Shown: piece after piece, positions 31,579 to 46,926 of the stretch
Position numbering within the stretch: the first letter of the stretch is position 1
Layout: every line of letters begins with the position of its first letter
From: Sedimentisphaerales bacterium
GTDB lineage: Bacteria; Planctomycetota; Phycisphaerae; Sedimentisphaerales; Anaerobacaceae
Reading direction: 5' to 3'
DNA length: 64,000 nt
Assembly (NCBI GenBank): GCA_963708075.1
Contig: OY970194.1
Coordinates: 6,720,001 to 6,784,000, forward strand
The notes under the pieces: model-generated
Database searches by the model: none
Told to the model about the DNA's origin: nothing
Seen by the model: only the letters and a program-made list of their open reading frames with translations
Translations under genes and position numbers: made by a program

Positions 31579-31942
31579 TGAGGCCGGGCCCCCAGCCTCG
31601 GCTACGCCTCCGTTACTCGTTGCACGGCAGACGAGGAGCCATTTTCCCGCAGGGGTGATCGGACAACCAGTCCGTTTTCCGGACCGATAAATGTTGAAAG
31701 CCGCGTTTTTTGCGATTGACAGGGGGTTCCGGCGTGCCGGTTTCTGCCGAAATGGATGGGGGTGGAGACAAAATGGAGACATGATTCTCAGGACAGCCGC
31801 GGCGATTCTTGGCACCGCATCTGGGAACGTCTACTGGTACTGTGATTGCATCTTGCTCCGCTCAGACACGATCAATTCGAACGACGCCGGTTCGTACCCT
31901 GCCGATGTCAGCGTGGAGATCGAGTCAATTCTCTAATCTACC

Positions 31943-32611
31943 TCAGATCCGGTGGTCCTGGCGCACGATGAGGCGTTGGCCACCGTCGAGGCTGCGGCTC
32001 CAGTTCTTGGGCGGCGCGATCCGGCGAAGGCGGTCGAGCTGTCCTATTTCCTTGAGGCGTGCGTAGATAAGCTGCCAGGCGCAGGGGACGTCCGGCCGGA
32101 CCTCACAGCGGTCCTCGCAAGACCCACCGCACGGACCGTTGAGCATCCGCTTCGCGCACCGGGTGACGGGGCAAATGCCGCCGTACTCGTGCAGCACGCA
32201 TGCCCCACAGGCGGCACATTTCTCCGTCCAGATGCCTTGCTCCTCCAAGATGCCGATGAACGCCGTGTCCAGACCCGCATAGACGGGCGTGTTGTGATAA
32301 CGTTCCGCGACGGCTTGAACGCCGGCGCCACAGCCCAGCGAAAGGACCGCCTCATTCCTCTGGATGGCATCGGCCGCCTGCTCAATGAAGACGTTGTCGC
32401 ACTGACGCTCGATGGTCAGCTCCTCGACTGCCAGATCGACGCCCTGCAGCCGCGATGAAATGCGCAGGGCTGAACTGATGATGCCGACCTCACGTTCGCC
32501 ACCGGCCAGACAGACCGTCACGCACGTTCCACAGCCCAGCACGAGCAGCTTCTTGTGCCCCTTGACGATATCCAACAGCTCCGGGATCTTCTTTCTTTCG
32601 GCAACGATCAT
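31943..32611 (-). CDS. metV: MetV, Fe-S/Zn small subunit of methylene-THF reductase
   Basis: GCGTCVTVC, RQC, CGAGVQ, CAACGAC...GICPVTRCAK.MLNGPCGG...CAW. Confidence 0.88.
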   Translation of the reverse strand: MIVAERKKIPELLDIVKGHKKLLVLGCGTCVTVCLAGGEREVGIISSALRISSRLQGVDLAVEELTIERQCDNVFIEQAADAIQRNEAVLSLGCGAGVQAVAERYHNTPVYAGLDTAFIGILEEQGIWTEKCAACGACVLHEYGGICPVTRCAKRMLNGPCGGSCEDRCEVRPDVPCAWQLIYARLKEIGQLDRLRRIAPPKNWSRSLDGGQRLIVRQDHRI

Positions 32612-33129
32612 GAAGTCTTCTCCACTTTCTTCGATCGCGGCTTGCGAATTGCGGACTGCGGATTCCAAGTCGACGCATCAATCTGCGATTCGGGCTGTTT
32701 AGCCTTGTGGCCGTTGCGGGTGACGGGGCTGGGGCCGAGCTTGCGAACGGTCTCGACCATGTCAGTGATGGCGTCTGACAGAGGTCGCGCCATAGCCGCC
32801 GAGATATTGACCATGCGCAGGCGTTCCTTCCCCAGGCCCATCTCCTCCAGCATGTCGCGCATGTACTGGACTCGCCGCTTGGCGTAGAGGTTGCCACTGG
32901 TGTGGTGGCAGCCGCCTTCGAGGCAGCCGGCCACGAGGACACCGTCCGCGCCGGTCTCGAATGCCTTGATCAGGAATTCGGTCTCCAGCCGCCCCGTGCA
33001 GGGCGTGCGGATGATGCGGACGTTCGGCGGATACTGAATCCGCATCGTGCCCGCCAGGTCCGCCGCCGCATAGGCACAGTAGTGGCAGCAGAAGGCCAGG
33101 ACTCTCGGTTGGAATTCGGGTTCTTCCAT
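32608..33129 (-). CDS. mvhD: MvhD-type [2Fe-2S] subunit
   Basis: FCCHYCAYAAAD, PCTGR, GADGVLVAGC..GGCHH..GN. Confidence 0.92.
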   Translation of the reverse strand: MEEPEFQPRVLAFCCHYCAYAAADLAGTMRIQYPPNVRIIRTPCTGRLETEFLIKAFETGADGVLVAGCLEGGCHHTSGNLYAKRRVQYMRDMLEEMGLGKERLRMVNISAAMARPLSDAITDMVETVRKLGPSPVTRNGHKAKQPESQIDASTWNPQSAIRKPRSKKVEKTS

Positions 33130-33134
33130 ATGAT

Positions 33135-36100
33135 TTATGATACCTTAACCGCTACCTTCTCCTTTGATACTCCGGCGCCGTCGTCGAAGAGCGTGCGGAT
33201 CATCACTCGGAACTGGTCGGTCTCAAAATGGTTCAGTTGGATCGCCCGTGCTGGGCACTCGGAGGCGCAGATGCCGCAGCCCATGCACTTCGCCGCTTCG
33301 ATCTGGCCCTTGCCATCCAGGTTGCAGAACGGGGCGCCGTATGGACAGACGTGCACGCACGTCATGCACGAAATGCACTTGCTCTGATCGACGCGAGAGA
33401 CCTGCGGGCTGACGTCGAGGTGTGTCTTGGATAACACGGTCGCCGCCCTGGCCGCGGCTGCTCGCGCCTGGGCGATGCTCTCGTCGATGAACTTCGGCGA
33501 GTGCGCCAGGCCGCACAGGAAGATACCTTCGGTGGCAAAATCCACCGGCCGCAGCTTCATATGTGCCTCGACGTAGAAGCCATCCGCATTGAGCGGCACT
33601 TTGAGCATATCGGAGACTCGCTTATTGTTCTGGCGGTCAGCCTCAATGCCCGTGCTCAAGACGACCAAGTCCGTCTCGATATCGATCGGCTCGGGGAAGT
33701 CCGGACTGTTGACGCTGACCTTGAGCCCACCAGTCTCGGACACGACCGGCGGCCGCTCCGGCGTATATCGAAGGAATACCACCCCTGCTTCGCGGGCCTT
33801 CTTGTAGTAGATCTCCCGGAAACCGTAGGTCCGGATGTCGCGATAAAGGACGAAGACATCGGTGTCGGGCGATATCGCCTTGATGGCCAGTGCGTTCATG
33901 ACGGCCATCGAGCAGCAGATGCGGCTGCAATAGGGCCGCTCCTCATCACGCGATCCGGCACACTGAATCATGACAACGTTCTTGAGCCCCGCCAGCAACC
34001 GCCCCTCATGAATTTGCTGGTCCAGGTCAACCTGGGTGGTGACGTTTGGTGATGAGCCCCCCAGGAACTTCGTCGTCTGGGCCTTCTCGGCACCGGTCGC
34101 GACGATCACGGCGCCAGCACTGACTTCGGATTTCCGGCCGTTGCAGGACAGAGTCGCATGGAACTCGCCGATGTGGCCTTTGACCTCCGCCACGTCCGTC
34201 GCGAGGAACACATCGATATTCTTGTGCTCCTGCACTTGTTTGATCAGGCTCGCCGTCAGGCCGGCGACGTCGGTGTCTTCCAGCGTGTGATGAATGTCAT
34301 AGAGATGTCCGCCCAATCGCTGCGTTCGCTCCACGAGGTGGACCTTGAAACCCTGATTGGCGAGGGCCAGCGCCGCGGTCATGCCAGCCAGGCCGCCGCC
34401 GATGACCAGGCCTTTCTGATCGACGGCCAACGTGCCTGGCTCCAGAGGCGACAACAGGTGCGACCGTGCCACCGCCATCTTGACCAGCTCCGTCGCTTTC
34501 TGCGTGGCGATCTCGGGCGAGCCGGAGTGCACCCACGAGCATTGGTCGCGGATGTTCGCCATCTCGAAGAGGTATGGATTGAGGCCCGCCTCGCGCATCG
34601 TCTCGCGGAACAGCGGCTCATGTGTCCGCGGCGTGCAAGAGGCGACCACGATGCGGTTGAGCCGGTGCTCCACGATCTGCTGGCGGATGTTCGACAAGCT
34701 TGTATCCGAGCAGGTGAACATGGTGTGGGTCGCGAAGACCACGCCACGCTCGGCCTCGATGTCCTTGGTTACGCGCTCCACATCGATCACCGAGCCAATG
34801 TTCCGGCCGCAGTGGCACACGAAGACACCGATACGCGGCTCTTCGTCCGTGACATCGTGCTCATCAGGGTACTTCTTTGTCACCGTCCGCGTGTTGCGCG
34901 CCGACGCCAACAGTTCCATCGCCATGGAAGCGGCGCCGCTGGCCTGCATCACGGTCTCGGGAATGTCCTTCGGCTCCTGGAACGCCCCACCGACGAACAC
35001 GCCCGGCTGGGACGTGGACAGAGGCTGCGAACGCTGCGTCGCGCAGAAGCCGTATTCGTTGAGCTCGATGCCGAGCCGTGAAGCAAGTTCGACGGCGGTG
35101 GCGGAAGGCTCCAAGCCGACGGCCAGCACGACAAGGTCGAAGTCCTCCTCTCGCAGCTTGCCGGTCTCGTCCACGAAGCGGGCACGCGGATTCATCGTCC
35201 CCGGCATCTGGACAATGCGCGATGGGATGCTCTTGACATAGCGGACGCCGTTTTGATTCTTGGCCCGCTCGTAGTATTGATCGAAATCCTTGCCGTGGGC
35301 GCGGATATCCATATAGAAGATCGTCGCTTCCAGGCCCGGCGTGTGGTCCTGGGCCACCATGGCTTGTTTCGTCGAGGCCATGCAGCAAATCGACGAGCAA
35401 TATTCGTTCCCGCACTTGGAATCGCGCGAGCCGACGCACTGAATCCACGCCACCCTCTTGGCCTCGCGACGATCCGAGAGCCGCACGATGTGTCCCTCGA
35501 ACGGCCCGGCGGCCGACAGCATCCGCTCGAACTGGACGCTCGTGACCACGTTCGGATATCGTCCCCAGCCGAACTCGCCCTTGCGGCTCGCGTCGAATTC
35601 CTCGAAGCCGGTGGTCAGAACGACCGAGCCGACCTCCAGCTCGACCGTCCGCTCTCCCATGGTGTGATCGATCGCATTCTGCTTGCAGGCCTCCACGCAC
35701 TCCTTGCACTCCGAGCACAGGGCGCAGTTCAGGCACCGTTCCGCCTCAGCCAGTGCCTGCTCCTCCGTCAGACCCGTCTCCACTTCCTTGAAGCTGCCGA
35801 CTCTCTGGGCCACGGGCAGCTCGCCGGCCTTCGCGCGAAGCTTCTCCTCGATATCGTCCGGCGGGGGAAGCAGTTCCTCCGGAACCGGCTTGACCGTGCC
35901 CTCGAACCGCTGAGAGACCATGTCCTTGCCGTTCAGATACCGCTCAATGGACTCCGCCGCTCGCTTGCCGGCCGCCACCGCTTCAATCACCGACTTGGGC
36001 CCACTCACTGCATCGCCCCCGACGAAAATCCCGTCCAGCGATGTCTGGAGGGTCACCGGGTCCGCTTTGAAGTATCGGCCCTGGGTCTGCGCTCCGACAT

Positions 36101-37619
36101 GGCTCATGAATGCATCGTCGCTGGTCTGTCCGATGGCGGTGATGATCTGATCGGCTTCGATGGACAGCCACTGCTGCTCGTCATAGACTGGATTGAATCG
36201 CCCGTCGGCGCCAAAGACCTGCGTGCATTTCTTTAGCTCGATGCCGGCGACGCTGCCGTTGCCGAGGATTCTGCGAGGTCCCCAGCCGTTTCGGAACGTG
36301 ATGCCCTCTTGCAGGGTCGCCTCGACCTCTTCGGGATAGGCGGGCATTTCGTGTCGCTGTTCGAGCGACACCATCTCGACACTCTTGGCCCCGAGCCGCA
36401 AGGCGGTGCGGGCTACATCCACGGCGACGTTGCCGCCTCCGATGACGACGACTCTCGCCTTGACCTCGGGCTTGCTGCCCGTCGAGCCGGCTTGACATAG
36501 GAAATCGACGCCCTGGAGGACGCCCGGCTTGTTCTCCCCTTCCACACCGAGCAGGCGGCCCTTGGCGACGCCAGCGCCGATGAAGACAGCGTCATTGTCT
36601 TTACGCAGCTTCTCGATGGTAGTGTCTTTTCCGACGCGGCAGTTGAAGACAAAACGCACGCCCTTACGCCGGATGAGCTCGACCTCGTGATCCAGCACCT
36701 TCTTCGGCAGTCGATACTCCGGAATGCCATAGCGGAGCATGCCGCCCGCCGCCGGTTGGGCCTCGTAGACCGTCACGGCAAAGCCCTTGTCGGCAAGATC
36801 GCTCGCGACAGTCAATCCTGCCGGGCCGGCTCCGATGACGGCCACCTTCTTGGCGCCGGCTGCGGGCTTCTTCTCCGGAGGCAGGCTCAGTTTGCCCGCC
36901 TCCAGCATTTGCACTTCCTGATCAGAGGCGAAACGCTTGAGCAGCCGGATGGCGATCGTGTCGTCAGCCTTGCCTCGCGCGCACTTGCTCTCACAGGGAT
37001 GGGTGCAAATCCGGCCGCAGATCGCCGCCAGCGGGTTGCGCTCGCGGATCAGGTTCACCGCCTTGAGGTATTCCTTCTTCTTGATGAGCTGCACGTAGCC
37101 CTGCACGTTGACATTCGCGGGACAGGCCACTTTGCAGGGCGAATGGCCGTTCTTGAGAATGCCGAAGATGTTCGGCGTCGCCTGGGCGTAGTGCTTGGCG
37201 ATGGCCTTGCGCTTGCCGAGCTCGCGGTCAAAATGATCCGGAATCTGCACAGGACAGGCATTGGTGCACTCACTGCAGCCGTTGCACTTGGTCTCATCCA
37301 CATACCGCGGATACCGTTTGACGGTGGCTTTGAAGTTGCCCGGCTCGCCCTTGAGGTCGGTCAACTCGGACATCGTCAGGATTTCGATGTTCAGGTTGCG
37401 GGCACACTCGACGAGCTTGGGCGACACGATGCACGTGGCGCAGTCGCCGGTCGGGAAGGTCTTGTCGAGGTGGGACATCATGCCGCCGATGGCCGCCTCG
37501 CGCTCGACGAGATAGACCTTGAAGCCCGCGTTGGCCAGATCGAGCGACGCCTGCACGCCGGCGATTCCGCCGCCCTGCACGAGCACCGCACCTGTTTTCT
37601 TCTGACCGTTGTCACTCAT
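33135..37619 (-). CDS. hdrA: Large HdrA-like flavoprotein (HdrL-like) with an inserted GltD/NfnB-type module
   Basis: GGGIAG, LDKTFPT.DC..C, inserted SPCKVACP/CGRICTHPCE..C/GAGPAG/GGGNVA, two QC.GSR...YCS.ICC motifs, terminal ferredoxin. Confidence 0.9.
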   Translation of the reverse strand: MSDNGQKKTGAVLVQGGGIAGVQASLDLANAGFKVYLVEREAAIGGMMSHLDKTFPTGDCATCIVSPKLVECARNLNIEILTMSELTDLKGEPGNFKATVKRYPRYVDETKCNGCSECTNACPVQIPDHFDRELGKRKAIAKHYAQATPNIFGILKNGHSPCKVACPANVNVQGYVQLIKKKEYLKAVNLIRERNPLAAICGRICTHPCESKCARGKADDTIAIRLLKRFASDQEVQMLEAGKLSLPPEKKPAAGAKKVAVIGAGPAGLTVASDLADKGFAVTVYEAQPAAGGMLRYGIPEYRLPKKVLDHEVELIRRKGVRFVFNCRVGKDTTIEKLRKDNDAVFIGAGVAKGRLLGVEGENKPGVLQGVDFLCQAGSTGSKPEVKARVVVIGGGNVAVDVARTALRLGAKSVEMVSLEQRHEMPAYPEEVEATLQEGITFRNGWGPRRILGNGSVAGIELKKCTQVFGADGRFNPVYDEQQWLSIEADQIITAIGQTSDDAFMSHVGAQTQGRYFKADPVTLQTSLDGIFVGGDAVSGPKSVIEAVAAGKRAAESIERYLNGKDMVSQRFEGTVKPVPEELLPPPDDIEEKLRAKAGELPVAQRVGSFKEVETGLTEEQALAEAERCLNCALCSECKECVEACKQNAIDHTMGERTVELEVGSVVLTTGFEEFDASRKGEFGWGRYPNVVTSVQFERMLSAAGPFEGHIVRLSDRREAKRVAWIQCVGSRDSKCGNEYCSSICCMASTKQAMVAQDHTPGLEATIFYMDIRAHGKDFDQYYERAKNQNGVRYVKSIPSRIVQMPGTMNPRARFVDETGKLREEDFDLVVLAVGLEPSATAVELASRLGIELNEYGFCATQRSQPLSTSQPGVFVGGAFQEPKDIPETVMQASGAASMAMELLASARNTRTVTKKYPDEHDVTDEEPRIGVFVCHCGRNIGSVIDVERVTKDIEAERGVVFATHTMFTCSDTSLSNIRQQIVEHRLNRIVVASCTPRTHEPLFRETMREAGLNPYLFEMANIRDQCSWVHSGSPEIATQKATELVKMAVARSHLLSPLEPGTLAVDQKGLVIGGGLAGMTAALALANQGFKVHLVERTQRLGGHLYDIHHTLEDTDVAGLTASLIKQVQEHKNIDVFLATDVAEVKGHIGEFHATLSCNGRKSEVSAGAVIVATGAEKAQTTKFLGGSSPNVTTQVDLDQQIHEGRLLAGLKNVVMIQCAGSRDEERPYCSRICCSMAVMNALAIKAISPDTDVFVLYRDIRTYGFREIYYKKAREAGVVFLRYTPERPPVVSETGGLKVSVNSPDFPEPIDIETDLVVLSTGIEADRQNNKRVSDMLKVPLNADGFYVEAHMKLRPVDFATEGIFLCGLAHSPKFIDESIAQARAAAARAATVLSKTHLDVSPQVSRVDQSKCISCMTCVHVCPYGAPFCNLDGKGQIEAAKCMGCGICASECPARAIQLNHFETDQFRVMIRTLFDDGAGVSKEKVAVKVS

Positions 37620-38477
37620 AGACAGCCTTGACCACCTTTTCCGGCGAGATCATGAGCTTGTTCAAGCCGAGCCTCTGGGCGCGATGCCGAGGCACAGCCC
37701 CAGCAGTTGCGTGATGTAGAGGACCGGCATGTCGTAGCGGTTGCCTTTGCTCTTGGCGATGTCGAGCTGCCGCATGTCGAGGTTGATCTGGCACATGGGA
37801 CAACTAACGGCGATGCAATCGGCGCCGGCCAGCTTCGCCATCCCGACGATCGAGTCCGTGAGATTCACGACCACATCGGTCCGCGACATGGACAGGCCGC
37901 CGCCGCAACATTCCACCTTGTGGGGCCATTCGAGGGCCGTGCCGCCCAGGGCCGAAACCAATCGATCCAGCGAGCTTGGGTTCTCCGGGTCATCGAAACC
38001 CGTGACCTCGCTGGGCCGAACCAGGAGGCAGCCGTAGTAGCTGGCCACCTTCATCCCGGCCAGCGAGCCGTGCAGGGCCTCTTGAATCGTATCGGCCCCC
38101 ACGTCATCCAGAAGGACTTCGAGCAGGTGACGCACGTTCACCGAGCCGTCATAATCCCGGCCCACCGCCTCGGCCACTCTGGCCCGCATCTGCCTGCTCG
38201 CGGCGATCTCGTGATTCGCCACTTTCATCCGGTTGTAGCAAGCTGCACAGTTGACGACCAGGTCGAGGCCCATGTCCTTGGCCTTGACTAAGGTCGCCAC
38301 GGGCAGGGCCGCCGCCAGAACGTGGTCAGTCTGATGCCCCGCCGTGGCTCCGCAGCACGTCCAGCCTTGCGGCTCGATCAGCTCGATGCCCAGCGCCTCG
38401 GCGACGGCCAGTGTCGATTGGTGCATGTCCCGCGCGGTGGACTCCGCAGAGCAACCTGGAAAATACGCGTATTTCAT
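37612..38477 (-). CDS. hdrB: HdrB-like subunit (C-terminal frameshift near 37680)
   Basis: YFPGC, two CCG motifs, CAAC, YYGC, CPMCQ.NLD. Confidence 0.9.
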
Positions 38478-39040
38478 TTGCCCGCCCCGTCCTCTTTCGT
38501 CTTCTTGAAGATTCGACACACGGTCTTGCGATCCGCCCCGCGAGGAGGCAGCAATGCGATCTTGCGTTTCTTCAGCATGGTGGGGAACTTCTCGGTGTCG
38601 GCCATGAGCTTGCCGCTGCCGAGCTTGTAGCCGGCGATCATGGCGACGTCGTACGTCCGGCCGAAGATCTCGACGGTCTTGAGGAACGCCCGATTGAACA
38701 GCGGCACGTTGCCCTCGGGCCTGGCGGCGCCGCGATGGACCGCCAGCTTCCGAAGGGCGTCCATAACCGCCGCGACGTCGATCCCCATCGGGCATCGCGT
38801 CGAGCAGGTCTCGCACGAGACGCACATCCAGAGGATGTCGCTGTTGAGAAGCTCATCACCCATGCCCAAGTGCAGCCGCCGCACCATCTCCGAAGGCGGG
38901 CACTGGGCCATGCCCGACACCGGGCATCCGCTCGTGCACTTCTTGCACTGGTAGCACACGCTCAGGTCCACCCCCGAGATCTCCTGCACCTGCTTGAGAA
39001 TGCCCCGAGTGGACTTATTCTTTGAAATCGTTATCGCCAT
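38474..39040 (-). CDS. hdrC: HdrC-like ferredoxin subunit
   Basis: CYQCKKCTSGCP and WMCVSCETCSTRCP. Confidence 0.92.
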   Translation of the reverse strand: MAITISKNKSTRGILKQVQEISGVDLSVCYQCKKCTSGCPVSGMAQCPPSEMVRRLHLGMGDELLNSDILWMCVSCETCSTRCPMGIDVAAVMDALRKLAVHRGAARPEGNVPLFNRAFLKTVEIFGRTYDVAMIAGYKLGSGKLMADTEKFPTMLKKRKIALLPPRGADRKTVCRIFKKTKEDGAGK

Positions 39041-39070
39041 GTCTTGGATTCACCCACACGAATCGATGTC

Positions 39071-41725
39071 TCAACTCTTTGCCGCCACCTGTTTCTTCTC
39101 TTTGCCGGGTAGGGCCGCCACTTGGGCCAGCGCCTTGAGTGCGACCGGCGCCACCTTGCGATAGACTTCCTCCGGCTTGCACACCCGGCCATCGATTGTC
39201 ACCAGATCCTCGACCCTGATCCCGAACAGCTGCTCGTTCTCCTCCAGATAGGGCAGGATCAAGTTCCAATCCGCCTGTGTGAGCGCCGTGAACTTGCCGC
39301 CGTTGAGCTGTTGATCGACCACTTTGTGGTGCGGGTCGCGGACATAGATCGCGCCGCCGGAAGCGAGCGAGAACAGATTGCTGCCGGGGTACGGCTCGGG
39401 CAGCGGAACGACTTTGCCGTCCTCGTCGATCCGGATTCCGTTGAGGATCACGAAGCCGCCGCCGGCGAGCGGATCGCCCGCCATGAAGGACTCCGCCAAA
39501 AAGTCCAGGCACGTGCCATTGATGACGACCTTCGGCCGGCCAACGGAATTGATCAGAGGCCGGCCCGCCCCGTTGCCGAGGATGAAGATGGTGCCGCCTT
39601 TGGCCCCGTACATGAAGGTCTGGCCGAAGTCACCGTGAACGACGAGCTTGCCGCGTTTGATGATCTGGCCCAACTGGTCCTGGGCGTTGCCGTGCACGGT
39701 GATGGTCAGGCCGTCGATGCCGGAGGCGAGGTAGTCGCCGGAGCTGCCGTAGATGTCGATGGTCACGTCCTCGGTGTCGGGTCCGAGCCCGCAGCCGTGG
39801 AACCGCTGCCCCCGCAGGTCGAAGGTGATGAACCGTCGCCAGCCTTTGAGAAACGCGTCGCACAGGAGCGTCGAGTCGCAGCCTTCGCCTTCCGGCGGGA
39901 AGCCCAGCGCATCGATGACCAGCGTGGTCTCGCCGCGGGCAGGTCCGCGCAGGTCGCCCTTCGTCTTGAGATCGATCAAGCGATAGGGTCCGAGGCTGGG
40001 GTCGTCCGCATTGATCTTCGGCAGCGATCGCAGGAGCCGGAACAATTCGCTTCGAACGAGATGCAGGATGTGGCTGCGTCTCTTGCCACCGGTGGGGTAC
40101 TTGCGGTCGTTGAGCAGCGTATAAGCCGCGATCACCGTCGCCGTGTTCTCCCGCGTGGCCCCCAGCTCTGCCAGGGTCCGGCACACCGCCCGAAACACGT
40201 CGAAGGACCACGCCTTGGCGCCGTCGCGGACAAACTCGTACAAGCCGACCACGCTACCGGCCCGCAGACATCCGTCCAGCTTCTCTTCCACTGCTTTGTC
40301 CCCGCAAAGGGAAGCGGGGTCCGCCGAGAAGTCACAGGACTGGCTCCATTTTGGCATCGGCACAGGCTGGCCGAACTTGTCCGTACAAGTCATACGAAGC
40401 GTACCACCGGCGTCCTTCTCGAGATTGAAGAGGAAGGCGCCGCCGTCCGTGTAGCTGCCGCCGCGGGCGTTCCAGTAGCGGTCGGCGACCGGGCAGATTC
40501 GCTCGTCCTCCTTGGCTAGGCTCTGTAGCGTCGCGTCGATCGCCTGCTTTTCTGAAGCGATCAGGCCGACCTGGACCTCGCCCTCGGACAAGGCGAACAC
40601 CTGCGGCCGGAGCATCGCGGTATCTGTAATGCCGATAAGCTGGAACTTGTTTTCCCTCGCCACGTTGCGGGCGATGATGAAGAACCACGGGCCGTCGGGC
40701 GAGCCGTGGATGTGCGTCGTCTGGATGGCCTTGTAGATCCGCTGCTTCTCCTCTGGCAGCCGGTCGAAGTCCAGCTCGGTCGTCGGGGCCAGGGCCTCGA
40801 TGATGTATTCGAGCGGGTAGTGATACGTCCGGTCCAGCAGATCGAACAGCAGGGCCGAGACCTCTGTGTCGGTGAGGAACTGCGGATAGATGTTCCGCTG
40901 CTTGAGGTACTCGCTGACGGAGTGATAGTTCGCGAAGTCGCCGTTGTGAACGAGTGCCATGTTCATCGCGGCAAACGGATGCGCCCCGCCGGGGTGCCAG
41001 ACGCGGCCCTTCGTCGGGTAGCGCTGATGCGCGATCCAGGCGTGTGCGCAGAGGCCCTCGATTTTGTAGTACTTGACGATGGCCTCGGCGTAGCCGACGA
41101 CCTTGAGAATCATGATGTTCCGGCCGTGAGACAGCACGAACGCCCGCTGCTTGCCGAGCGAGGCGTAGAACTTCTGGTTCAGCTTGAAGCTGTTCTGGCT
41201 TACGTACTCATCTTCGGCCGCCCGCCGGTCCATTGTCTTGAGACCGTTCTTCTGAACGAAGTCATCGAGCACCGTCGGCTTGACGCGGACGAAGTAGCGC
41301 CACACGTCCGGCGGCTTGACCTCCAGGTCGCCCACCGCCTGCCAGTCGTCCACCTTGTCCAATGCGGCGGATGCGGCCACGTCGAAATGCGGCGTGATGA
41401 ACTCCTTCTCGACTTCCGCCCGGACATTCGGGTCCAGCAGCGCGACGTGCAGCATGTAGTGCTCGTCGAGCACCTGCCGGCTGACGCCCAACTGCTCGGG
41501 CAGCAGTCCAACTGCCGCAATGCCGCCGCCTTTGCCGTTGCCGCGATTGTGCATCTGCTTGGACGGCTCGTAGATGTGCCGACCGGGCACCGCCTTCGTG
41601 CAGCAGAAACCGACAACCCCGCAGCCCCCCTCATCTTCCGCCTTGCGCACCATCTGAGGCCACCCGCACGCGTCGGCCAGGGTCTTCCTCGAATGTGACA
41701 ACTGTTGTATCAACTGCTCGTTCAC
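39071..41725 (-). CDS. Glutamate-synthase-like subunit: class II glutamine amidotransferase fused to a GXGXG beta-helix
   Basis: Propeptide then CGVVG, HQRYPT, AHPF, HNGD, DTEV, DGP; C-terminal GCGLG, GSSGDY, HGNAQDQ, YGAKGG. Confidence 0.88.
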   Translation of the reverse strand: MNEQLIQQLSHSRKTLADACGWPQMVRKAEDEGGCGVVGFCCTKAVPGRHIYEPSKQMHNRGNGKGGGIAAVGLLPEQLGVSRQVLDEHYMLHVALLDPNVRAEVEKEFITPHFDVAASAALDKVDDWQAVGDLEVKPPDVWRYFVRVKPTVLDDFVQKNGLKTMDRRAAEDEYVSQNSFKLNQKFYASLGKQRAFVLSHGRNIMILKVVGYAEAIVKYYKIEGLCAHAWIAHQRYPTKGRVWHPGGAHPFAAMNMALVHNGDFANYHSVSEYLKQRNIYPQFLTDTEVSALLFDLLDRTYHYPLEYIIEALAPTTELDFDRLPEEKQRIYKAIQTTHIHGSPDGPWFFIIARNVARENKFQLIGITDTAMLRPQVFALSEGEVQVGLIASEKQAIDATLQSLAKEDERICPVADRYWNARGGSYTDGGAFLFNLEKDAGGTLRMTCTDKFGQPVPMPKWSQSCDFSADPASLCGDKAVEEKLDGCLRAGSVVGLYEFVRDGAKAWSFDVFRAVCRTLAELGATRENTATVIAAYTLLNDRKYPTGGKRRSHILHLVRSELFRLLRSLPKINADDPSLGPYRLIDLKTKGDLRGPARGETTLVIDALGFPPEGEGCDSTLLCDAFLKGWRRFITFDLRGQRFHGCGLGPDTEDVTIDIYGSSGDYLASGIDGLTITVHGNAQDQLGQIIKRGKLVVHGDFGQTFMYGAKGGTIFILGNGAGRPLINSVGRPKVVINGTCLDFLAESFMAGDPLAGGGFVILNGIRIDEDGKVVPLPEPYPGSNLFSLASGGAIYVRDPHHKVVDQQLNGGKFTALTQADWNLILPYLEENEQLFGIRVEDLVTIDGRVCKPEEVYRKVAPVALKALAQVAALPGKEKKQVAAKS

Positions 41726-41728
41726 GGC

Positions 41729-43302
41729 CTATTGCCCCACGTCATTCGTATAGTCAAGATGCATCAGGAGGTCGGTCCGGCCGCGCAGCTCGCTGACGCT
41801 TCGCATCCCGAATCGCCGCAGAATATCGATCAGCTCGTCATGCCATGCGTTGTACAGATTGATCATCCGCTGCGTGCCCCAGTCGAGATCCATCTTGCCG
41901 CAGAGTTCAGAGTCCGTGGTGGCGATTCCGCGCGGACAGCCCCGGCCGCTCTCGCACCGGCTGCACCGAACACAGCCCAGTGCGACCAACTCCGCCGTCC
42001 CGATCACGACGCCGTCGGCGCCCAGGGCAATCGCCTTGGCCACGTCATGAACGGTCCGCACGCCGCCGCTGGCCATCAATGTGACTTTGTCCCGGACGCC
42101 TTCGGCCTTGAGGAACCCGTGCACCTTGCCAATGGCGTATTCGATTGGCATGGCGATGTTCTTCTTCGCGATGTCGGGCGAGGCGCCGGTGCCACCGTAA
42201 CCGCCGTCGATGTGAATGATGTGCGTGCCGGCGGCATAGCTGCCCACCGCGACCATGTCCACATCCGTTGGGGTCGAGACCTTCGTCGAGAGCAGGGCCC
42301 GCCGGTTGATGTGCTTGATCCAGTCGAGGTGCTTCATGTGGTCCTCGATGGAGTAGACACTGTGGAACGGGAACGGCGAGAACAACGAGATCCCGAGCAC
42401 CGCCTCGCGCATCCGGGCCACGGCAGGGGTGTTCTTGTCGCCGAGCAGGTGGCCGCCAAGCCCCGGCTTGGCGCCCTGGGCATATTTGAACTCGACGATC
42501 GGCACGCGTTGGATCGTCTCTTCGCGGACGCCGAACAGGCCCGTGGCGACCTGCGTGATCACGTGGTCGTCATAGGGCCGCATCCGCTCCATGTAGCCAC
42601 CTTCACCCGTACAGGTGAAGGTGTTCCACGCCACGGCGCATCGGGCCTTCGAGAGCTGCGTGACGTTACTGACGGAGCCGAACGACATGCCGCCGCCGTA
42701 CCAGGGGACGTCGATCCGGATTTGAGGCCGGCCGTCGCCCCGGCGGTTGAGCTTGATGCTCGTGTCGATCTGGTCCTTCGACACGCCATTCGAGGGCTTC
42801 TCCGGGAACTTGAACCGCAGCTTGTCGAACCCGCCGCCGGAATTGCCGCACTGGTAGTCGAAGCCGTACTCTGTCGCGGGGACGCTTCCCGTCTCGGCCA
42901 TCATCCAGGTGGCGAGGATCATGTCGGCCGTCCAGCGGTAATCGCCCAGGATCTGCATCATCGGGTTTTCGACGATCTGCAGCGCCGACTTGGGACAGGC
43001 GGCCACGCAATAGTGATTCGTCTCTTCGCACGCCGCGCCGATGCAGTGGTACGACTTCGGCTCGCAGAAGTACTTGTACCCCGGCTTGCGGACGTGCACA
43101 CCGTACGGGCAAAGCTGGGCACATTTGCCGCAGTGGATGCAGTCGTGGTTGCGCCGGATGATGTATTTCGAGACTTCGTTCCGGTAGCGCGGCGGGGCCG
43201 GCGCGACTTGCGCTCCACTACAACCTGCGGCACACGCGTCTTCAGTGTGTTGGCCGGCAGGATGTCCCGAAGATCACTTTCTTTTACCGAAAAGCTTGCC
43301 AA
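41729..43302 (-). CDS. Ferredoxin plus FMN-binding glutamate synthase domain, catalytic motifs intact (frameshift near 43210)
   Basis: CIHCGKCAQLCP, GGMSFGS, TGEGG, QVATGLFG, EFKYAQGAKPGLGGHL, DGGYGGTGAS, C..C..C..G.CP; TTG 43302 preceded by GAGGAGG. Confidence 0.88.
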
Positions 43303-44674
43303 ACGTTTCCTCCTCGAGGTCCTCGAAGAACATCGCGCGGCCGATGTCGCCGCGCAGCCGGCGGACTTCGCGCATGCCCATCGCCCCCATGACCTCGATC
43401 AATTGATCGTGCCAGGCGGCGATCAGGTTCACCATGCGCCCGACGGCATAATCAAAGGGCACATCATCCAGCCTGGCGGGACATGGCATGCCCGCCTCGC
43501 AGCGATCACAGAGGTGACACTCCAAGGCGATCATCAGCGGCAGGTCGATGCTGACTAAGTCGGCGCCGCAGATGATGGCTTTGGCCATGTGCTCGGGCAG
43601 GGCAATCCCACCGCCAGCGATGAGCGTGACTTCGTCCCGAATTCCTTTTTCGATCAGCGCCGTATGAATCCGGCGGATCATGTCCCTCAAAAACAAAGGC
43701 TTTTCTACGCCGATCTGGTTGCCGTTGAGGTCGGCCACGACGTGGATCGCCTCTGCCTCGGCCAGAGTAGCCAACTCAATGGCCCGCTGCACACCTTTGG
43801 CATCCAGCGGTACGCGCACTGAGACAACGATTCCGGGATGCTTGTCCTTGAGCCGCTTGATGCGGTCGATCACGTCGGGGCCGTCATAGGTCTCCACCAG
43901 CCGGGTCTGGGCCAATGATTCCGGTGGGACAACAGGCTGCTCCGGGTTCAAACAGAACGCCATGTGGGGTGCCAGACGATCTACATCCTCCCCGACAAAG
44001 GGCCAGTCGGATGGGCCGGCCAGGGCAATGATGTCCGTGCGTACGGCGGCCTCGCGAAGGGCGGGACCCAGCTTGGGCAACGTGTGACGCGGCGAGGACA
44101 GATTCAGGATCAACGGCATCTGGATCGACAGGCACGAGGCGTCGATTCGGAACGACTGGTCCTGGAAGTTCAGATAGGCGGGCTTGCGACCGATGTCCGC
44201 CGCCGTGCTGATGTACTCGCGGCCGTGGATGCCGTCGCGTGTGGGCCGAACGATCTCGGACATGTCGGTCCACATGCTGTCGAAACCCGGCCCGCTGAAG
44301 GGGCCTCTGTACCCGGCGCCGGAGACGGGAATCTTGGCCGTCTCCGCCTGGGTCCACGTCGTATGAATGATCTCGGGCGTCCAGTAGCTGTTGCCCAGGG
44401 CCTCGTAGATCGGATTGACGACCAGCCGCAGCAGGCCCTTCGTGCAATTCTGAACGCAGGAGAAACAGCCCATGCACTCGAAGAACAGAGCATCGACCGC
44501 CTCCAGTGTGCGGATATACTCTGCTTCTTGCCGATAGCGATCGTACACGCAGGCCTTCTTGACGCAGTTGTGACACCGGGCACAATCTTCGCGCCAATCG
44601 ACCACGCCGAACTTGCCGATGCGAGGTCGGCGCGGCGGCACGGGTTTCGTTTCAATGTGGTATTTCTCAGGCAT
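43274..44674 (-). CDS. Ferredoxin plus degenerate glutamate-synthase FMN-barrel subunit
   Basis: CARCHNC and CMGCFSC; EVTLIAGGGI, KAIICGAD, CHLCDRC; lacks GMS.G and QGAKPG.GG. Confidence 0.8.
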   Translation of the reverse strand: MPEKYHIETKPVPPRRPRIGKFGVVDWREDCARCHNCVKKACVYDRYRQEAEYIRTLEAVDALFFECMGCFSCVQNCTKGLLRLVVNPIYEALGNSYWTPEIIHTTWTQAETAKIPVSGAGYRGPFSGPGFDSMWTDMSEIVRPTRDGIHGREYISTAADIGRKPAYLNFQDQSFRIDASCLSIQMPLILNLSSPRHTLPKLGPALREAAVRTDIIALAGPSDWPFVGEDVDRLAPHMAFCLNPEQPVVPPESLAQTRLVETYDGPDVIDRIKRLKDKHPGIVVSVRVPLDAKGVQRAIELATLAEAEAIHVVADLNGNQIGVEKPLFLRDMIRRIHTALIEKGIRDEVTLIAGGGIALPEHMAKAIICGADLVSIDLPLMIALECHLCDRCEAGMPCPARLDDVPFDYAVGRMVNLIAAWHDQLIEVMGAMGMREVRRLRGDIGRAMFFEDLEEETFGKLFGKRK

Positions 44675-44689
44675 AGCTCTTCTTGCACC

Positions 44690-45595
44690 CTACAGGCCGG
44701 CAGCCGCACGCAGTTTCGACACGATCTTCTCTCGGCCTCCCGAGAGGATGTGAATGCCCCGGACGCCCTTCATACCTTTGAGCTTGCCAATGATCTCGGC
44801 ACAAATCTTCAAGCCTTCTTTCTCTTGAGCGTCTGCGTTTCCGGCGGCCTTGAGTCTTGCCACCAGGGCATCGGGAATTCGCAACTCCGTATGAGCCTCG
44901 CGGAGCTTCTCGGCCTCTTCGGCACTGCTCAGGGGCAAGATGCCCACCAGGATCGCGGTCTTGTCCACCAGTTCCTCTTTGCGGGCTGCATCAAGCCAGA
45001 TGGCAAACTCATCTATGTCAAAGACAGGCTGCGTCTGAATGAAGTCCGCCCCGGCCCCGACCTTCTTGGCGAGCTGGATCATGTTCAGCTCCAGCGGTCG
45101 AAGGTACGGGTTCGCCACCGTCCCAATCAGCATGGAGAACTTGCCCGAGACGGCAGTCCCATCCAGGAGCGTACCTTTGTCACGCATCTGCCTGATGGTC
45201 CAGATAACCTGGATCGCATCGAGGTCATACACATTGGCCGAGTCGGAGCACCCGGTGAGGGTCTGGTGATGGCCCGACGTACACACGATGTTCTTGATTC
45301 CCAGCACGGCGGCGCCCAGCAGGTCCGACTGGATCGCAATGCGGTTGCGGTCGCGGGTGACTACCTGATAAATGGGCTCACGTCCCAGCCCGAGAAGCAC
45401 CGATGACGCGGCGAGACTTGACGTGGCGATGCCGCTGTGATTGTCAGCCACGCTGACAGCAGCGAGACTGTCGCCCATCGCATCCGCCGCCGCCTTGATC
45501 GCGGCCCCCTCGGCCGCCGGAGGCGGCAGGATTTCCGCTGTCACGACAAATGCGGCCGACTGAAGGGCACTGGCCAACTTGCTGTCTGGTTTCAT
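44690..45595 (-). CDS. metF: Methylenetetrahydrofolate reductase, MetF-like
   Basis: VVTAEILPP, VADN, TRDRNRIAIQSDLLGA, KKVGAGADFIQTQ, GIHI. Confidence 0.88.
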   Translation of the reverse strand: MKPDSKLASALQSAAFVVTAEILPPPAAEGAAIKAAADAMGDSLAAVSVADNHSGIATSSLAASSVLLGLGREPIYQVVTRDRNRIAIQSDLLGAAVLGIKNIVCTSGHHQTLTGCSDSANVYDLDAIQVIWTIRQMRDKGTLLDGTAVSGKFSMLIGTVANPYLRPLELNMIQLAKKVGAGADFIQTQPVFDIDEFAIWLDAARKEELVDKTAILVGILPLSSAEEAEKLREAHTELRIPDALVARLKAAGNADAQEKEGLKICAEIIGKLKGMKGVRGIHILSGGREKIVSKLRAAAGL

Positions 45596-46053
45596 GCGGC
45601 ATTCTCCCGACGGGTGCCCGTTCGCGCATCTGCCAGAACAGTCCGGGCCGGCTTGGTCCTGACAGAATGCACTCGGTCAAGCTTCGTTTGGAGTTGCTGG
45701 ACAGCGTCGATCAACGGCTCGCTCTGTCCCTGTTCTTTTGTCGCGACAACGACGCGACCCTTGCCAAAACCGATTTCGTCCAACAACTCCTCCACGGCCT
45801 CGGCCCGCTTGGACGCCCGGAGATTGCCCTCCAGATGCTTGCACTGGGACTCGGGACAAACACACAGCACCACGCCATCGGCGCCCTTTTCAAACGCCTT
45901 GAGCAGGTATGGAATCGTCGCTTTGCCGGAGCAAGGCAGGCTGAGTGTCTTAAGCCCGTCCGTGTCGAGCCGGGTTTGCAACTCCTGGAGCTCGGCATCC
46001 GTCACACTGTTGGCACAGTAAAAGAGATGGATCGTTGGAGCTTGTTTATCCAT
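45592..46053 (-). CDS. Second, divergent MvhD-like subunit
   Basis: LPCSGK, AFEKGADGV..C.C....C.H.EGN; N-terminal motif reduced to FYCANS. Confidence 0.8.
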   Translation of the reverse strand: MDKQAPTIHLFYCANSVTDAELQELQTRLDTDGLKTLSLPCSGKATIPYLLKAFEKGADGVVLCVCPESQCKHLEGNLRASKRAEAVEELLDEIGFGKGRVVVATKEQGQSEPLIDAVQQLQTKLDRVHSVRTKPARTVLADARTGTRRENAA

Positions 46054-46239
46054 AGCGCACTTGACCCAAACGGCCTATACAGGCATAATAGTCTGAGAAG
46101 CAGCCCGAGCTGCTTCGGCCACCGATTCGGACATCCGACTCGGTCATCGAAAATCAAAACAGGAGGGGCGGGGCTTGCCGTTTCCGGCTGCCGCTAAACA
46201 GCTTGGCAAGCCTCGCCCACAACCCAATGCCCTAAGTCA

Positions 46240-46329
46240 TGGAATAATGGAACGATGGAACAATGGAGTATTGGGGCACGCACCGGCCGCTTCCCCATCA
46301 TTTCATCATTCCGATATTCCGTCATTCCA
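46240..46329. repeat. Inverted array of 8-bp units (GGAAYRAT/ATCATTCC), MITE-like
   Basis: Four 8-mer units face four complementary units. Confidence 0.75.
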
Positions 46330-46347
46330 ATCTCCCGTCGTACATCT

Positions 46348-46650
46348 TCACTGCCGGCTGAACCGGGCGACGAACTCCAGGTGGCCCCTGAGGACCCACA
46401 TCTTCTCCAGAAACTCCGGCCAGCCGCAGGAGGGCTGGAAACCTTCCGGGGCCTCCGAGTCAATCACAGTGCCGGAGACGACGACCCCTTCGAGTTCTCC
46501 CCAGAGGTCCGCCCAGACACTCAAGGCATCCTGCACAACGTTGCCGGTGACACCTCGAAAATGGGCCAACTCGGCCTGGGGCAAGGGTGCTTTGGCGATG
46601 ATCTGCGATTTCTCGCCCTCAAACTTGACCAGCTTCACACCCTGATTCAT
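46348..46650 (-). CDS. Hypothetical protein (~100 aa), first gene after the sigma54 promoter
   Basis: ATG 46650 with GGAAG RBS; co-oriented with the operon. Confidence 0.6.
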   Translation of the reverse strand: MNQGVKLVKFEGEKSQIIAKAPLPQAELAHFRGVTGNVVQDALSVWADLWGELEGVVVSGTVIDSEAPEGFQPSCGWPEFLEKMWVLRGHLEFVARFSRQ

Positions 46651-46717
46651 ACTTCCGGTCCAATATGTGTCCACCCAGCGCCTGGGTACTCACATTGCCC
46701 AGGCCGCTATCGATCAG

Positions 46718-46734
46718 TGCAAGAACCGTTCCAG
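46718..46734 (-). promoter_or_regulatory. sigma54 -24/-12 promoter
   Basis: Minus strand CTGGAACGGTTCTTGCA with exact GG-N10-GC spacing; IHF-like TTTCAATGGTTTA at 46772-46784. Confidence 0.7.
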
Positions 46735-46926
46735 CGTGTCCGAACCATCGATGTGTCTGTATCTCCTGATATTTCAATGGTTTACGTGGAATGATCGGGA
46801 ATGCACTCTCAGACCTGCCCGGGGAGAATTGGCACAGAAAGTGGGCCACGGATCAACAAATGAGCCACAGTAGATGGAGAGGCTGCCTGCTGGTGCTTAT
46901 GGTGGTGCTTGTACTTGTGGGCCGAA

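Follow-up and report, generated by a model that had tools for sequence, protein, structure and literature searches.

Gene content of the operon

The window analysed here, a 64,000-nt stretch of contig OY970194.1 from a Sedimentisphaerales bacterium (assembly GCA_963708075.1, positions 6,720,001 to 6,784,000), carries on its minus strand at 31943-46053 ten co-oriented, abutting genes, among which glutamate-synthase-type genes stand inside a set of metF, metV, hdrCBA and mvhD genes. The listing of open reading frames (ORFs) together with Pfam and NCBIfam scans gave the order mvhD, metF, degenerate Fd-FMN, Fd-FMN, GATase-GXGXG, hdrC, hdrB, hdrA, mvhD and metV; Fd-FMN denotes a protein with ferredoxin and flavin mononucleotide (FMN) domains, and GATase a glutamine amidotransferase domain. 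Together with the small orf in front of them these are the eleven genes that an initial annotation, made from the DNA letters and their translations, had listed on the same strand and in the same order. Its remark that a separate gltD gene is missing was likewise borne out, as none lies in the cluster and a GltD-like module sits within HdrA. Neighbouring genes of the operon overlap by 1-4 nt or are separated by 3-42 nt, the start of hdrB overlapping the stop of hdrC by 1 nt. The genes are listed below with the E-values of their family matches.

46348-46674, minus strand: small orf, no family; start GTG 46674 or ATG 46650
45592-46053, minus strand: MvhD-like protein 1 (MvhD1), 153 aa, putative [2Fe-2S] adaptor; FlpD, 2.8e-21
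44690-45595, minus strand: MetF-like flavoprotein, 301 aa, of the MetVF type, without the conserved Asp; MTHFR, 4.7e-25
43274-44674, minus strand: degenerate Fd-FMN paralogue, 466 aa; Glu_synthase, 7.5e-14, profile positions 183-368 only
41729-43302, minus strand: Fd-FMN, about 524 aa after correction (listed as 41729-43099, 456 aa); Glu_synthase (PF01645), 3.8e-86
39071-41725, minus strand: GATase-GXGXG fusion, 884 aa; GXGXG (PF01493), 1.3e-14; GATase_6, 3.9e-07
38474-39040, minus strand: HdrC-like, 188 aa, two Cys-rich ferredoxin motifs; NCBIfam CoB_CoM_SS_C, 5.5e-21, under the cut-off
37662-38474, minus strand: HdrB-like, 270 aa from MKYAYF; CCG domain, 5.8e-22, two stretches; NCBIfam HdrB, 2.3e-58, under the cut-off
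33135-37619, minus strand: large HdrA, 1494 aa; by Pfam and NCBIfam two HdrA/thioredoxin reductase (TrxR)-like flavin domains, the first interrupted by a GltD-like module
32608-33129, minus strand: MvhD 2, 173 aa; FlpD, 1.9e-50; NCBIfam VhuD, 8e-45, under the cut-off
31943-32668, minus strand: MetV, 241 aa as listed, likely start ATG 32611; DUF5981 (MTHFR C-terminal, MetV), 6.5e-37

The genes on both flanks are unrelated to the operon (a glycoside hydrolase, a subtilase, a 2162-aa dockerin/fn3 protein, a NUDIX protein and others), so that it forms a self-contained island. The 2162-aa protein, which has fibronectin type III, CARDB and dockerin domains, is encoded at 23768-30256 on the minus strand, about 1.7 kb downstream of the operon. 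Related loci were obtained by a search with the GATase-GXGXG protein, which gave 75 loci with one genome per species, and the twelve proteins of the window were placed in them by tblastn. MetV is 64-90% identical among the related loci with the full cluster.

A missing base upstream of Fd-FMN

The Fd-FMN gene as listed is preceded by an apparent gap of 174 nt, and the same spacing occurs in every related locus. In the window, both Fd-FMN genes share one frame across a single TGA, after which a conserved CxxCxxCxxxCP ferredoxin motif is encoded. The N-terminal extension of Fd-FMN is kept at the protein level in 34 of 35 related loci, and in 31 of the 35 its frame differs from that of the upstream gene; its first part (KESDLRDILPANTLKTRVPQ...) is found in another frame of the window, opened by TTG 43302. 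Contigs of all four public runs (4/4) insert one letter at 43206/43207, and a 408-nt contig of run X1 with this extra letter is otherwise identical to the window. The gap is therefore an assembly error, the window missing one base of the A run at 43200-43215, near 43207. The corrected Fd-FMN starts at TTG 43302, is about 524 aa long, overlaps the preceding gene by 29 nt and possesses a full N-terminal ferredoxin domain. Read-through of the TGA, or selenocysteine at this codon, as a means of joining both Fd-FMN genes was ruled out by the differing frames in 31 of 35 loci and by the base inserted in the four runs. Elsewhere in the genome of the window (C1:772777-774736; L087:10778-12737) the formate-tetrahydrofolate ligase gene is split into two adjacent ORFs, covering profile positions 2-321 and 329-556, probably through a further indel error in the single-contig assembly.

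The glutamate synthase proteins

Of 65 loci, 64 have the glutaminase motif EGGCGV[VIT]GF of the GATase-GXGXG fusion. The nucleophile Cys35 follows a leader of about 34 aa, and in none of the 55 loci with listed start codons does a start codon abut this cysteine. Such a leader is the pattern expected of N-terminal nucleophile (Ntn) amidotransferases, which expose Cys1 by cleavage, and the Azospirillum entries, with a numbering offset of 36, have the same leader pattern for bacterial GltB. The HQR and HNG motifs are also visible in the fusion. Its structural model reached a predicted local distance difference test score (pLDDT) of 80.9 and a predicted template modelling score (pTM) of 0.83, and the top Foldseek matches of the model were glutamate synthase alpha chains (1ea0_A, E 1.5e-11, 758 columns), followed by the glutaminases GlmS and PurF.

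Fd-FMN aligns with residues 882-1170 of the Azospirillum GltS alpha subunit at 7e-52 and has glutamate synthase large subunit as its best NCBIfam match. It retains the QGAKPG motif and the ARxR arginine; the lysine of the former and this arginine, which we take to be residues of the 2-oxoglutarate site, are invariant in 26 Fd-FMN sequences. The cluster motif next to the FMN consists of four invariant cysteines (C376, C379, C382 and C388) as opposed to three in Azospirillum GltB. The mean column identity of Fd-FMN across phyla is 76%.

The degenerate Fd-FMN is 43% identical to Fd-FMN over its C-terminal 118 aa. It retains a ferredoxin domain with eight Cys and, towards the C-terminus, the cluster motif and the second half of the barrel; the cysteines 31/34/37/42, 67/70/73/77 and 386/389/398 are invariant. 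A substrate-site motif is missing, and its sequence matches in the PDB include no glutamate synthase; it is read as a putative Fe-S wire. Both Fd-FMN subunits thus bear ferredoxin domains, which leaves a route from ferredoxin as donor open beside the GltD-like module within HdrA. With its catalytic features intact, the glutamate synthase part looks functional, and the initial annotation as a split glutamate synthase agrees with the glutaminase, FMN-synthase, GXGXG and Fe-S motifs, all of which are intact according to sequence and fold matches.

Three giant single-copy metagenome proteins, P0025 (3016 aa), P0042 (3152 aa) and P0088 (2526 aa), carry a GlcD-like FAD-linked oxidase fused to Glu_synthase and GXGXG. 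The oxidase part consists of FAD_binding_4 and FAD-oxidase_C, and P0088 has Fe-S domains as well. These proteins suggest hydroxyacid-driven glutamate synthases; from such rare fusions it would therefore follow that this glutamate-synthase core accepts different electron-input modules.

The Hdr-type proteins

HdrA matches the HdrA of a methanogen (PDB 5odc_A) at 2.7e-185 in four stretches. Its GltD-like FAD/NAD(P)H insert spans approximately residues 155-665, of which 159-641 are matched by NfnA/GltD-type PDB chains. According to the accessible part of PMC9430772, the HdrA of Moorella thermoacetica has 1487 aa and contains an additional TrxR-like domain that a GltD domain interrupts. Because the Moorella protein has the same build, the GltD module is, judged by this likeness, an inherited feature of Moorella-type HdrA and not special to the cluster; the initial annotation was right about the presence of a GltD-like module in HdrA but not in treating it as a peculiarity. 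In the same part of that source a Glu/Lys pair marks bifurcating flavins. This pair is invariant in the first flavin domain (E698 and K751, 33/33), and in the second domain Glu is present in 29 and Lys in 31 of the 33 sequences. In the insert, the sequence of the NAD(P)H motif is GGGNVA, and under the GXGXXA rule for nucleotide motifs, as worded in the accessible part of PMC12054007, a motif of this type suggests NADPH. HdrB keeps both of its CCG motifs. In MvhD1 the cysteines 13, 41, 66 and 71 are invariant (28 rows), and both MvhD proteins keep four Cys.

MetF paralogues and C1 metabolism

The cluster MetF, with a mean column identity of 65%, keeps the glutamate aligned with Glu28 of E. coli MetF in 34 of 34 sequences, as well as the RDRNR motif of MetVF-type MetFs and TQ. 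We assume that Glu28 is the acid catalyst in the E. coli enzyme and that Asp120 serves in folate binding and catalysis. The position of Asp120 is occupied by His in the MetF of the window and is variable over the 34 cluster MetFs (Y 19, H 4, N 2, T 1, F 1, L 1, D 6). The six cluster MetFs that do have Asp belong to five variants without Hdr genes and to L048, and the residue is absent in 28 of the 29 clusters with Hdr-type genes (28 with hdrCBA and L069, which has an HdrA-like gene only). The Asp is kept by E. coli MetF and by four canonical MetVF-type MetFs that were taken from genomes also carrying the operon.

At least two MTHFR matches were found in 46 of 50 cluster-bearing genomes, the others usually scoring better than the cluster protein, and the cluster MetF is thus an extra paralogue. 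The genome of the window encodes a MetF-MetV fusion inside a region for formate dehydrogenase, carbon monoxide dehydrogenase (CODH), acetyl-CoA synthase (ACS) and Fhs, and a third MetF, a MetF-MetV-pterin-binding fusion, elsewhere. In the complete ORM2a genome there are two further hdrCBA-mvhD-metV-metF clusters, one of them near acsB, plus a GltD-metV-metF cluster. Separate MetF/MetV or Hdr-type sets were found in all three genomes checked (those of the window, ORM2a and one Dehalococcoidia). Judged by these comparisons, the Hdr/MetFV set of the operon is not the catabolic methylene-tetrahydrofolate (methylene-THF) reductase of the Wood-Ljungdahl pathway. A link to C1 metabolism is doubtful because the cluster MetF is without the Asp and is an extra paralogue, and because separate MetF/MetV sets are kept.

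The Wood-Ljungdahl region of the genome of the window (C1:742000-782000) contains the MetF-MetV fusion, FdhD, a NuoG-type formate dehydrogenase, a NuoF-like subunit, DUF3786, CODH, AcsB, CdhD and Fhs, and also encodes an ADP-forming acetyl-CoA synthetase. At two other loci, L092 (G015:C1:2730000-2745000) and L094 (G014:C2:695000-714999), a stand-alone GltD-like protein is followed by metV and metF; these genomes also have the ten-gene operon, and the clusters look like a further NAD(P)H-linked form of MetVF. A sequence search of the PDB revealed neither a solved Hdr-type MetFV complex nor a close MetF. P0153 (595 aa; MetF plus degenerate Fd-FMN) was considered as a Rosetta-stone fusion and rejected, its linker and tail resembling a frameshifted read-through, and among 365 longer MetF relatives a join of MetF with glutamate synthase was seen only in this discounted protein.

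Distribution and variants of the operon

The GATase-GXGXG fusion has 305 relatives, many of them fragments, at E <= 1e-30 among 1.84 billion representatives. A locus was counted as carrying the full set when it had metF, both Fd-FMN types, GATase-GXGXG, hdrC, hdrB, hdrA, metV and an mvhD on one strand. The full set occurs in 32 of the 75 loci, 30 of them by this definition and two in a circularly permuted form that is cut at the fetched end. In some permuted loci the Fd-FMN match at the fetched end is possibly a cross-match to the degenerate paralogue. The glutamate-synthase and hdr/met genes thus co-occur widely; a lack of such co-occurrence elsewhere was what the initial annotation had named as its refutation, and the loci do not refute it. 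A further 34 loci are cut by contig ends or incomplete; gene order is contradicted in none. According to the record titles, the carriers belong to Planctomycetota, Dehalococcoidia and other Chloroflexota, Thermodesulfobacteriota, Syntrophaceae, Spirochaetota, Leptospirales and Acidobacteriota. The two sets of genes are interleaved, with metF and one mvhD on one flank of the glutamate-synthase genes and metV with the other mvhD beyond hdrCBA, an arrangement that holds across phyla and in the permuted form.

For the 19 loci with complete single-piece matches of six proteins (GATase-GXGXG, degenerate Fd-FMN, MetF, HdrA, HdrB and MetV), the distance matrices correlate with r of 0.89-0.96, the observed value being reached by 0 of 999 permutations for any pair. 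In the full-text literature searched, which covers neither supplements nor subscription journals, no description of glutamate-synthase genes inside a metFV-hdr cluster was found, and the combination may still be called uncharacterised in that literature, as it was in the initial annotation.

Variants fall into two groups. In six of the 75 loci hdrC and hdrB are missing, and the Hdr-less variants L056, L059, L065, L066 and L068 retain MvhD, MetV and MetF alongside the glutamate-synthase trio. In three others the trio stands alone: L045 has the trio plus MvhD, without Hdr or MetF, and L051 and L064 have it without any Hdr, MetF or MvhD partner. The neighbours of such loci are genes of nitrogen metabolism, namely glnE next to L056, amtB and glnA next to L066, asnB-amtB-glnB-glnA next to L045 and glnA next to L064, and the context of the variant loci points to ammonium assimilation.

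Predicted contact between MvhD1 and the degenerate subunit

A complex of three chains, degenerate Fd-FMN, Fd-FMN and MvhD1, was modelled with its own alignments. The interaction prediction score from aligned errors (ipSAE) was 0.65 (runs 0.63, 0.65 and 0.69) as against 0.00 for the best of three controls; the mark applied is reached by 116 of 157 solved complexes and by 2 of 215 mismatched pairs and is only rough for a model with own alignments and three chains. The runs share at least 95% of their contacts, and the pLDDT of the partner is at least 78. MvhD1 is predicted to dock on the ferredoxin domain with eight Cys in the degenerate Fd-FMN (residues 23-29, 51-63 and 83-92), with the Cys41 region of MvhD at the interface. 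The multimer modelling suggested along with the initial annotation places an MvhD on a glutamate-synthase-type subunit.

Regulatory region

Upstream of the small orf lie a candidate promoter element and a gene for an activator, and a structured spacer separates the small orf from the first mvhD gene:

47048-49246, minus strand: NifA-like sigma54-dependent activator with GAF, AAA+ sigma54-interaction and C-terminal helix-turn-helix domains; Sigma54_activat, 4.5e-74; GAF, 7.1e-14
46718-46733, minus strand: sigma54-type -24/-12 element TGGAAC-N5-TTGCA, one mismatch to TGGCAC-N5-TTGCW
46054-46350, minus strand: structured spacer of 297 nt between small orf and mvhD; long G+C-rich stem, then a T-rich run
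Counterparts of the spacer: L001:5034-5317, L007:5417-5691, L008:5324-5604 and L072:5246-5565

The activator matches the NCBIfam nifA model at 5.8e-151 with 503.9 bits, which is under the cut-off of 528.85, and its orthologue occupies the same position in seven related Planctomycetota loci (L001, L005, L007, L008, L009, L050 and L072). The distance from the sigma54-type site to the downstream ATG of the small orf is 68 nt. The window contains no match to the exact consensus and seven sites with one mismatch where 2.3 are expected, so that a single match is weak by itself and the argument for this site is one of position and conservation. A similar site is present upstream of the small orf in seven of eight related orf-bearing loci, and in 11 of 54 loci overall, a count made without a shuffle control. 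Two further one-mismatch sites are found at 31835-31850 (plus strand), just past the 3' end of metV on the opposite strand, and at 55835-55850 (minus strand). The small orf itself has no Pfam, NCBIfam or Atlas match and was found by tblastn only in Planctomycetota loci, at 43-61% identity.

The spacer has a minimum free energy of -123.2 kcal/mol (z -4.2), and none of 200 shuffled sequences folds as well. Blocks of it are conserved in five of five aligned loci, changes on both sides are seen in 10 of the 54 predicted pairs, and a variable insert is located in the loop. No Rfam family matched the window at gathering score, and none matched 45900-47100 even at E <= 1. The spacer may serve to attenuate, terminate or stabilise transcripts. 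A terminator scan of the operon revealed no excess (8 found, 10.8 expected), and a sigma70 scan gave promoter-like matches mostly on the other strand. Among 20 sequencing runs listed, no RNA data set was found. Expression in this lineage is probably under the NifA-like sigma54 activator. The initial description as a sigma54 operon is supported as far as the site, the adjacent activator and the conservation in seven of eight loci are concerned, but for the ten genes it is only plausible, as the spacer intervenes.

Comparison with known systems

The operon shares its six non-glutamate-synthase protein families with the Hdr-type MetFV-HdrCBA-MvhD systems of Moorella thermoacetica and Sporomusa ovata, here together on one strand, and the order hdrC-hdrB-hdrA-mvhD-metV is the same. 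The size and the build of HdrA are also shared, including the GltD-interrupted extra TrxR-like domain and the Glu/Lys flavin signature (PMC9430772, accessible part). In contrast to those systems, three glutamate-synthase-type genes and a second mvhD are found inside the operon, metF stands apart from metV, the operon MetF is without the conserved Asp, and the whole set is paralogous in the three genomes checked. Furthermore, its variant loci lie in an ammonium-assimilation context and not among acs genes.

The likeness to GltBD of Azospirillum brasilense (PDB 1ea0, 2vdc and 6s6s) comprises the Ntn glutaminase with its leader, the substrate motif of the FMN domain, an Fe-S cluster next to the FMN and the GXGXG beta-helix, as well as a GltD-type NAD(P)H/FAD/Fe-S module as presumed electron entry. 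However, the domains are here divided among three proteins in another order and without the central domain; the cluster motif, with three Cys in Azospirillum, has a fourth; there are additional ferredoxin domains and a second, degenerate subunit of the FMN type; and the GltD module forms part of HdrA, whereas in GltBD it binds to the alpha subunit. Split glutamate synthases of the archaeal type, among them the F420-dependent forms proposed in the accessible part of 10.1101/2021.09.25.461819, likewise have separate glutaminase, Fd-FMN and GXGXG parts, with variable electron-input partners next door. The operon differs from them in the fusion of the glutaminase with GXGXG and in having Hdr, MvhD and MetFV as partners and not an FrhB-type subunit. 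With MvhAGD-HdrABC of methanogens (PDB 5odc) it has in common an HdrA flavin domain with the Glu/Lys pair, HdrBC with CCG motifs and MvhD as a [2Fe-2S] adaptor between a catalytic module and HdrA; unlike that complex, it is without a hydrogenase, has a glutamate synthase as the attached module and possesses a tandem HdrA with a GltD insert.

Proposed function and its alternatives

On balance, the operon probably specifies a single glutamate synthase of many subunits, which receives its electrons from a redox module of the Hdr type that is possibly bifurcating, MetF and MetV being co-opted parts. From the gene content, the conserved motifs and the predicted contact we infer a single complex of all the parts with the following electron path. 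The core would consist of the Ntn glutaminase-GXGXG protein, the Fd-FMN synthase and the degenerate Fd-FMN as a wire, forming two glutamates from glutamine and 2-oxoglutarate. Its electrons would be supplied by the Moorella-type module (HdrCB, the GltD-containing HdrA, two MvhD and MetV/MetF) and not by a free GltD or ferredoxin. NAD(P)H would be oxidised at the GltD-like insert of HdrA, where the GXGXXA motif points to NADPH, and the electrons would cross the HdrA flavin with the bifurcating-flavin signature; from there MvhD1 would relay them into the Fe-S chain of the degenerate Fd-FMN, which would lead to the FMN site. Since the glutamate synthase reaction is strongly exergonic, the electron pair may be divided at the Hdr part, the second electron being forced onto a low-potential carrier such as ferredoxin. 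MetF is more likely to be a flavin/Fe-S accessory of the complex than the methylene-THF reductase of the cell. A bolder version, which is put forward tentatively, is that the complex would be the first flavin-based electron-bifurcating biosynthetic aminating enzyme: NADPH would be oxidised, one electron would run downhill to the glutamate synthase, the drop would serve to reduce ferredoxin, and MetF/MetV would be a co-opted relic that does not reduce folate.

The proposal of an Hdr-fed glutamate synthase draws support from the conserved gene block and its correlated distances, from the intact glutamate-synthase motifs, from the nitrogen genes beside the variants and the NifA-like activator of the window, from the modelled contact, and from L045, in which MvhD accompanies the trio without Hdr or MetF. 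It is also favoured by the frequency with which no other glutamate synthase is seen: in 28 of 50 cluster-bearing genomes the sole Glu_synthase match at E <= 1e-20 is a split-type Fd-FMN with a cluster-like score, and a canonical glutamate synthase of about 1500 aa was found in only nine of the 50. Several observations weigh against the proposal. The second flavin domain of HdrA has in the window D1200 and M1241 in place of Glu and Lys, and the Moorella-type HdrA is described without an inserted ferredoxin-binding domain in the accessible part of PMC9430772. The intact CCG motifs of HdrB suggest a disulfide-type or other substrate. The loci L051 and L064 have no partner at all, and therefore free ferredoxin may serve the core as donor, while the Hdr module may be either dispensable or an entity of its own. 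The correlated distances could also stem from shared host ancestry. The three-chain model probes one contact only, and its passing score may partly reflect a likeness to solved Mvh-Hdr structures, in which MvhD lies against Fe-S domains. Transcripts from the sigma54 site may be stopped by the spacer. A MetF that is this well conserved and keeps the Glu28 equivalent probably does something specific that lies outside the favoured reading, and AcsB is present in 40 of the 50 cluster-bearing genomes, a looser tie to Wood-Ljungdahl organisms being real. Finally, the 28 genomes with a sole Glu_synthase match were counted genome-wide without mapping the matches to the cluster, among metagenome-assembled genomes that are incomplete, which lessens the weight of this number. 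The genome of the window also holds a canonical GltB elsewhere (1553-aa frame).

Rather doubtful is the closest alternative, in which one complex has two catalytic ends, a true MetFV methylene-THF reductase and a glutamate synthase, that share a bifurcating Hdr core and couple C1 and nitrogen metabolism. The MetF/MetV/HdrCBA/MvhD set and the build of HdrA do match the Moorella type (PMC9430772, accessible part), and, with MvhD and the HdrA flavin domain each present twice, there could be two acceptor arms. The Glu28 equivalent, RDRNR and TQ of MetF and the frequency of AcsB are also in agreement with it. On the other hand, the Asp120 equivalent, kept by canonical MetFs, is gone and its position variable in 28 of 29 Hdr-type clusters, separate MetF/MetV or Hdr-type sets exist in each of the three genomes checked, and AcsB was not found in six of the seven related Planctomycetota genomes searched. 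The initial annotation had proposed a coupling of nitrogen and C1 redox metabolism through flavin bifurcation; the co-occurrence of the genes and the docking of MvhD1 are in line with this, whereas the link to methylene-THF is doubtful for a paralogous MetF that is without the Asp.

It is unlikely that two merely co-transcribed enzymes are encoded, a ferredoxin-dependent split glutamate synthase of archaeal type and an Hdr-type MetFV paralogue. The trio-only loci (L045 with MvhD, L051 and L064) and the ferredoxin domains that both Fd-FMN subunits have of their own would fit such a pair, as would the statement, in the accessible part of PMC9430772, that MetVF of Sporomusa ovata was not purified as a stable complex with Hdr proteins. 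Yet the genes are interleaved rather than juxtaposed, across phyla and in permuted form, the Hdr-less variants still pair MvhD, MetV and MetF with the trio, and the model docks MvhD1 on the degenerate Fd-FMN.

Less probable again is a role of MetF as donor, in which it would oxidise methyl-THF or another hydride donor and feed the glutamate synthase through MetV and MvhD, the Hdr part adding NAD(P)+ as a second acceptor or donor. In the five Hdr-less variants MetF is the sole NAD(P)H module and keeps the Asp, and the GlcD-like fusions indicate that dehydrogenase input modules exist for this core. The potential for the reductive amination of 2-oxoglutarate lies above the -200 mV of the methylene-THF/methyl-THF couple. 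This value for the couple is the one given in the accessible part of PMC9430772. Against MetF as donor, the Asp is gone in the window and in 28 of 29 Hdr-type clusters, and the stoichiometry of a catabolic intermediate relative to nitrogen assimilation would be awkward.

That the GltB-like genes encode an N-methylglutamate synthase or another amine enzyme tied to methylene-THF is highly improbable: N-methylglutamate synthase does have split GltB-like subunits and its pathway does end in methylene-THF, but the genes flanking the operon in the window include no glutamine-synthetase-type or N-methylglutamate dehydrogenase-like family, the only such family beside the variants is the ordinary glnA, with amtB, glnB, glnE and asnB as its companions, and the best NCBIfam match of Fd-FMN is a glutamate synthase. 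The methylamine or N-methylglutamate chemistry and the glutamate oxidation considered in the initial annotation both found no support, the variants being set among genes of ammonium assimilation.

Implications

Glutamate synthase is the main gate through which nitrogen enters biomass, and the operon may be the route of ammonium assimilation in many uncultured Dehalococcoidia, Desulfobacterota and their relatives. If it is bifurcating, these anaerobes would regain, as low-potential reducing power, part of the energy that an ordinary glutamate synthase (GOGAT) loses; a bifurcating Hdr part would then represent a new class of acceptor for flavin-based electron bifurcation and allow cheaper nitrogen assimilation under energy limitation. 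The operon also bears on the role of the Hdr part in Hdr-type MetFV complexes and on their second substrate. In metagenome bins its metF, metV and hdr genes are easily miscounted as markers of the Wood-Ljungdahl pathway, and the evidence presented here speaks against counting them as such.

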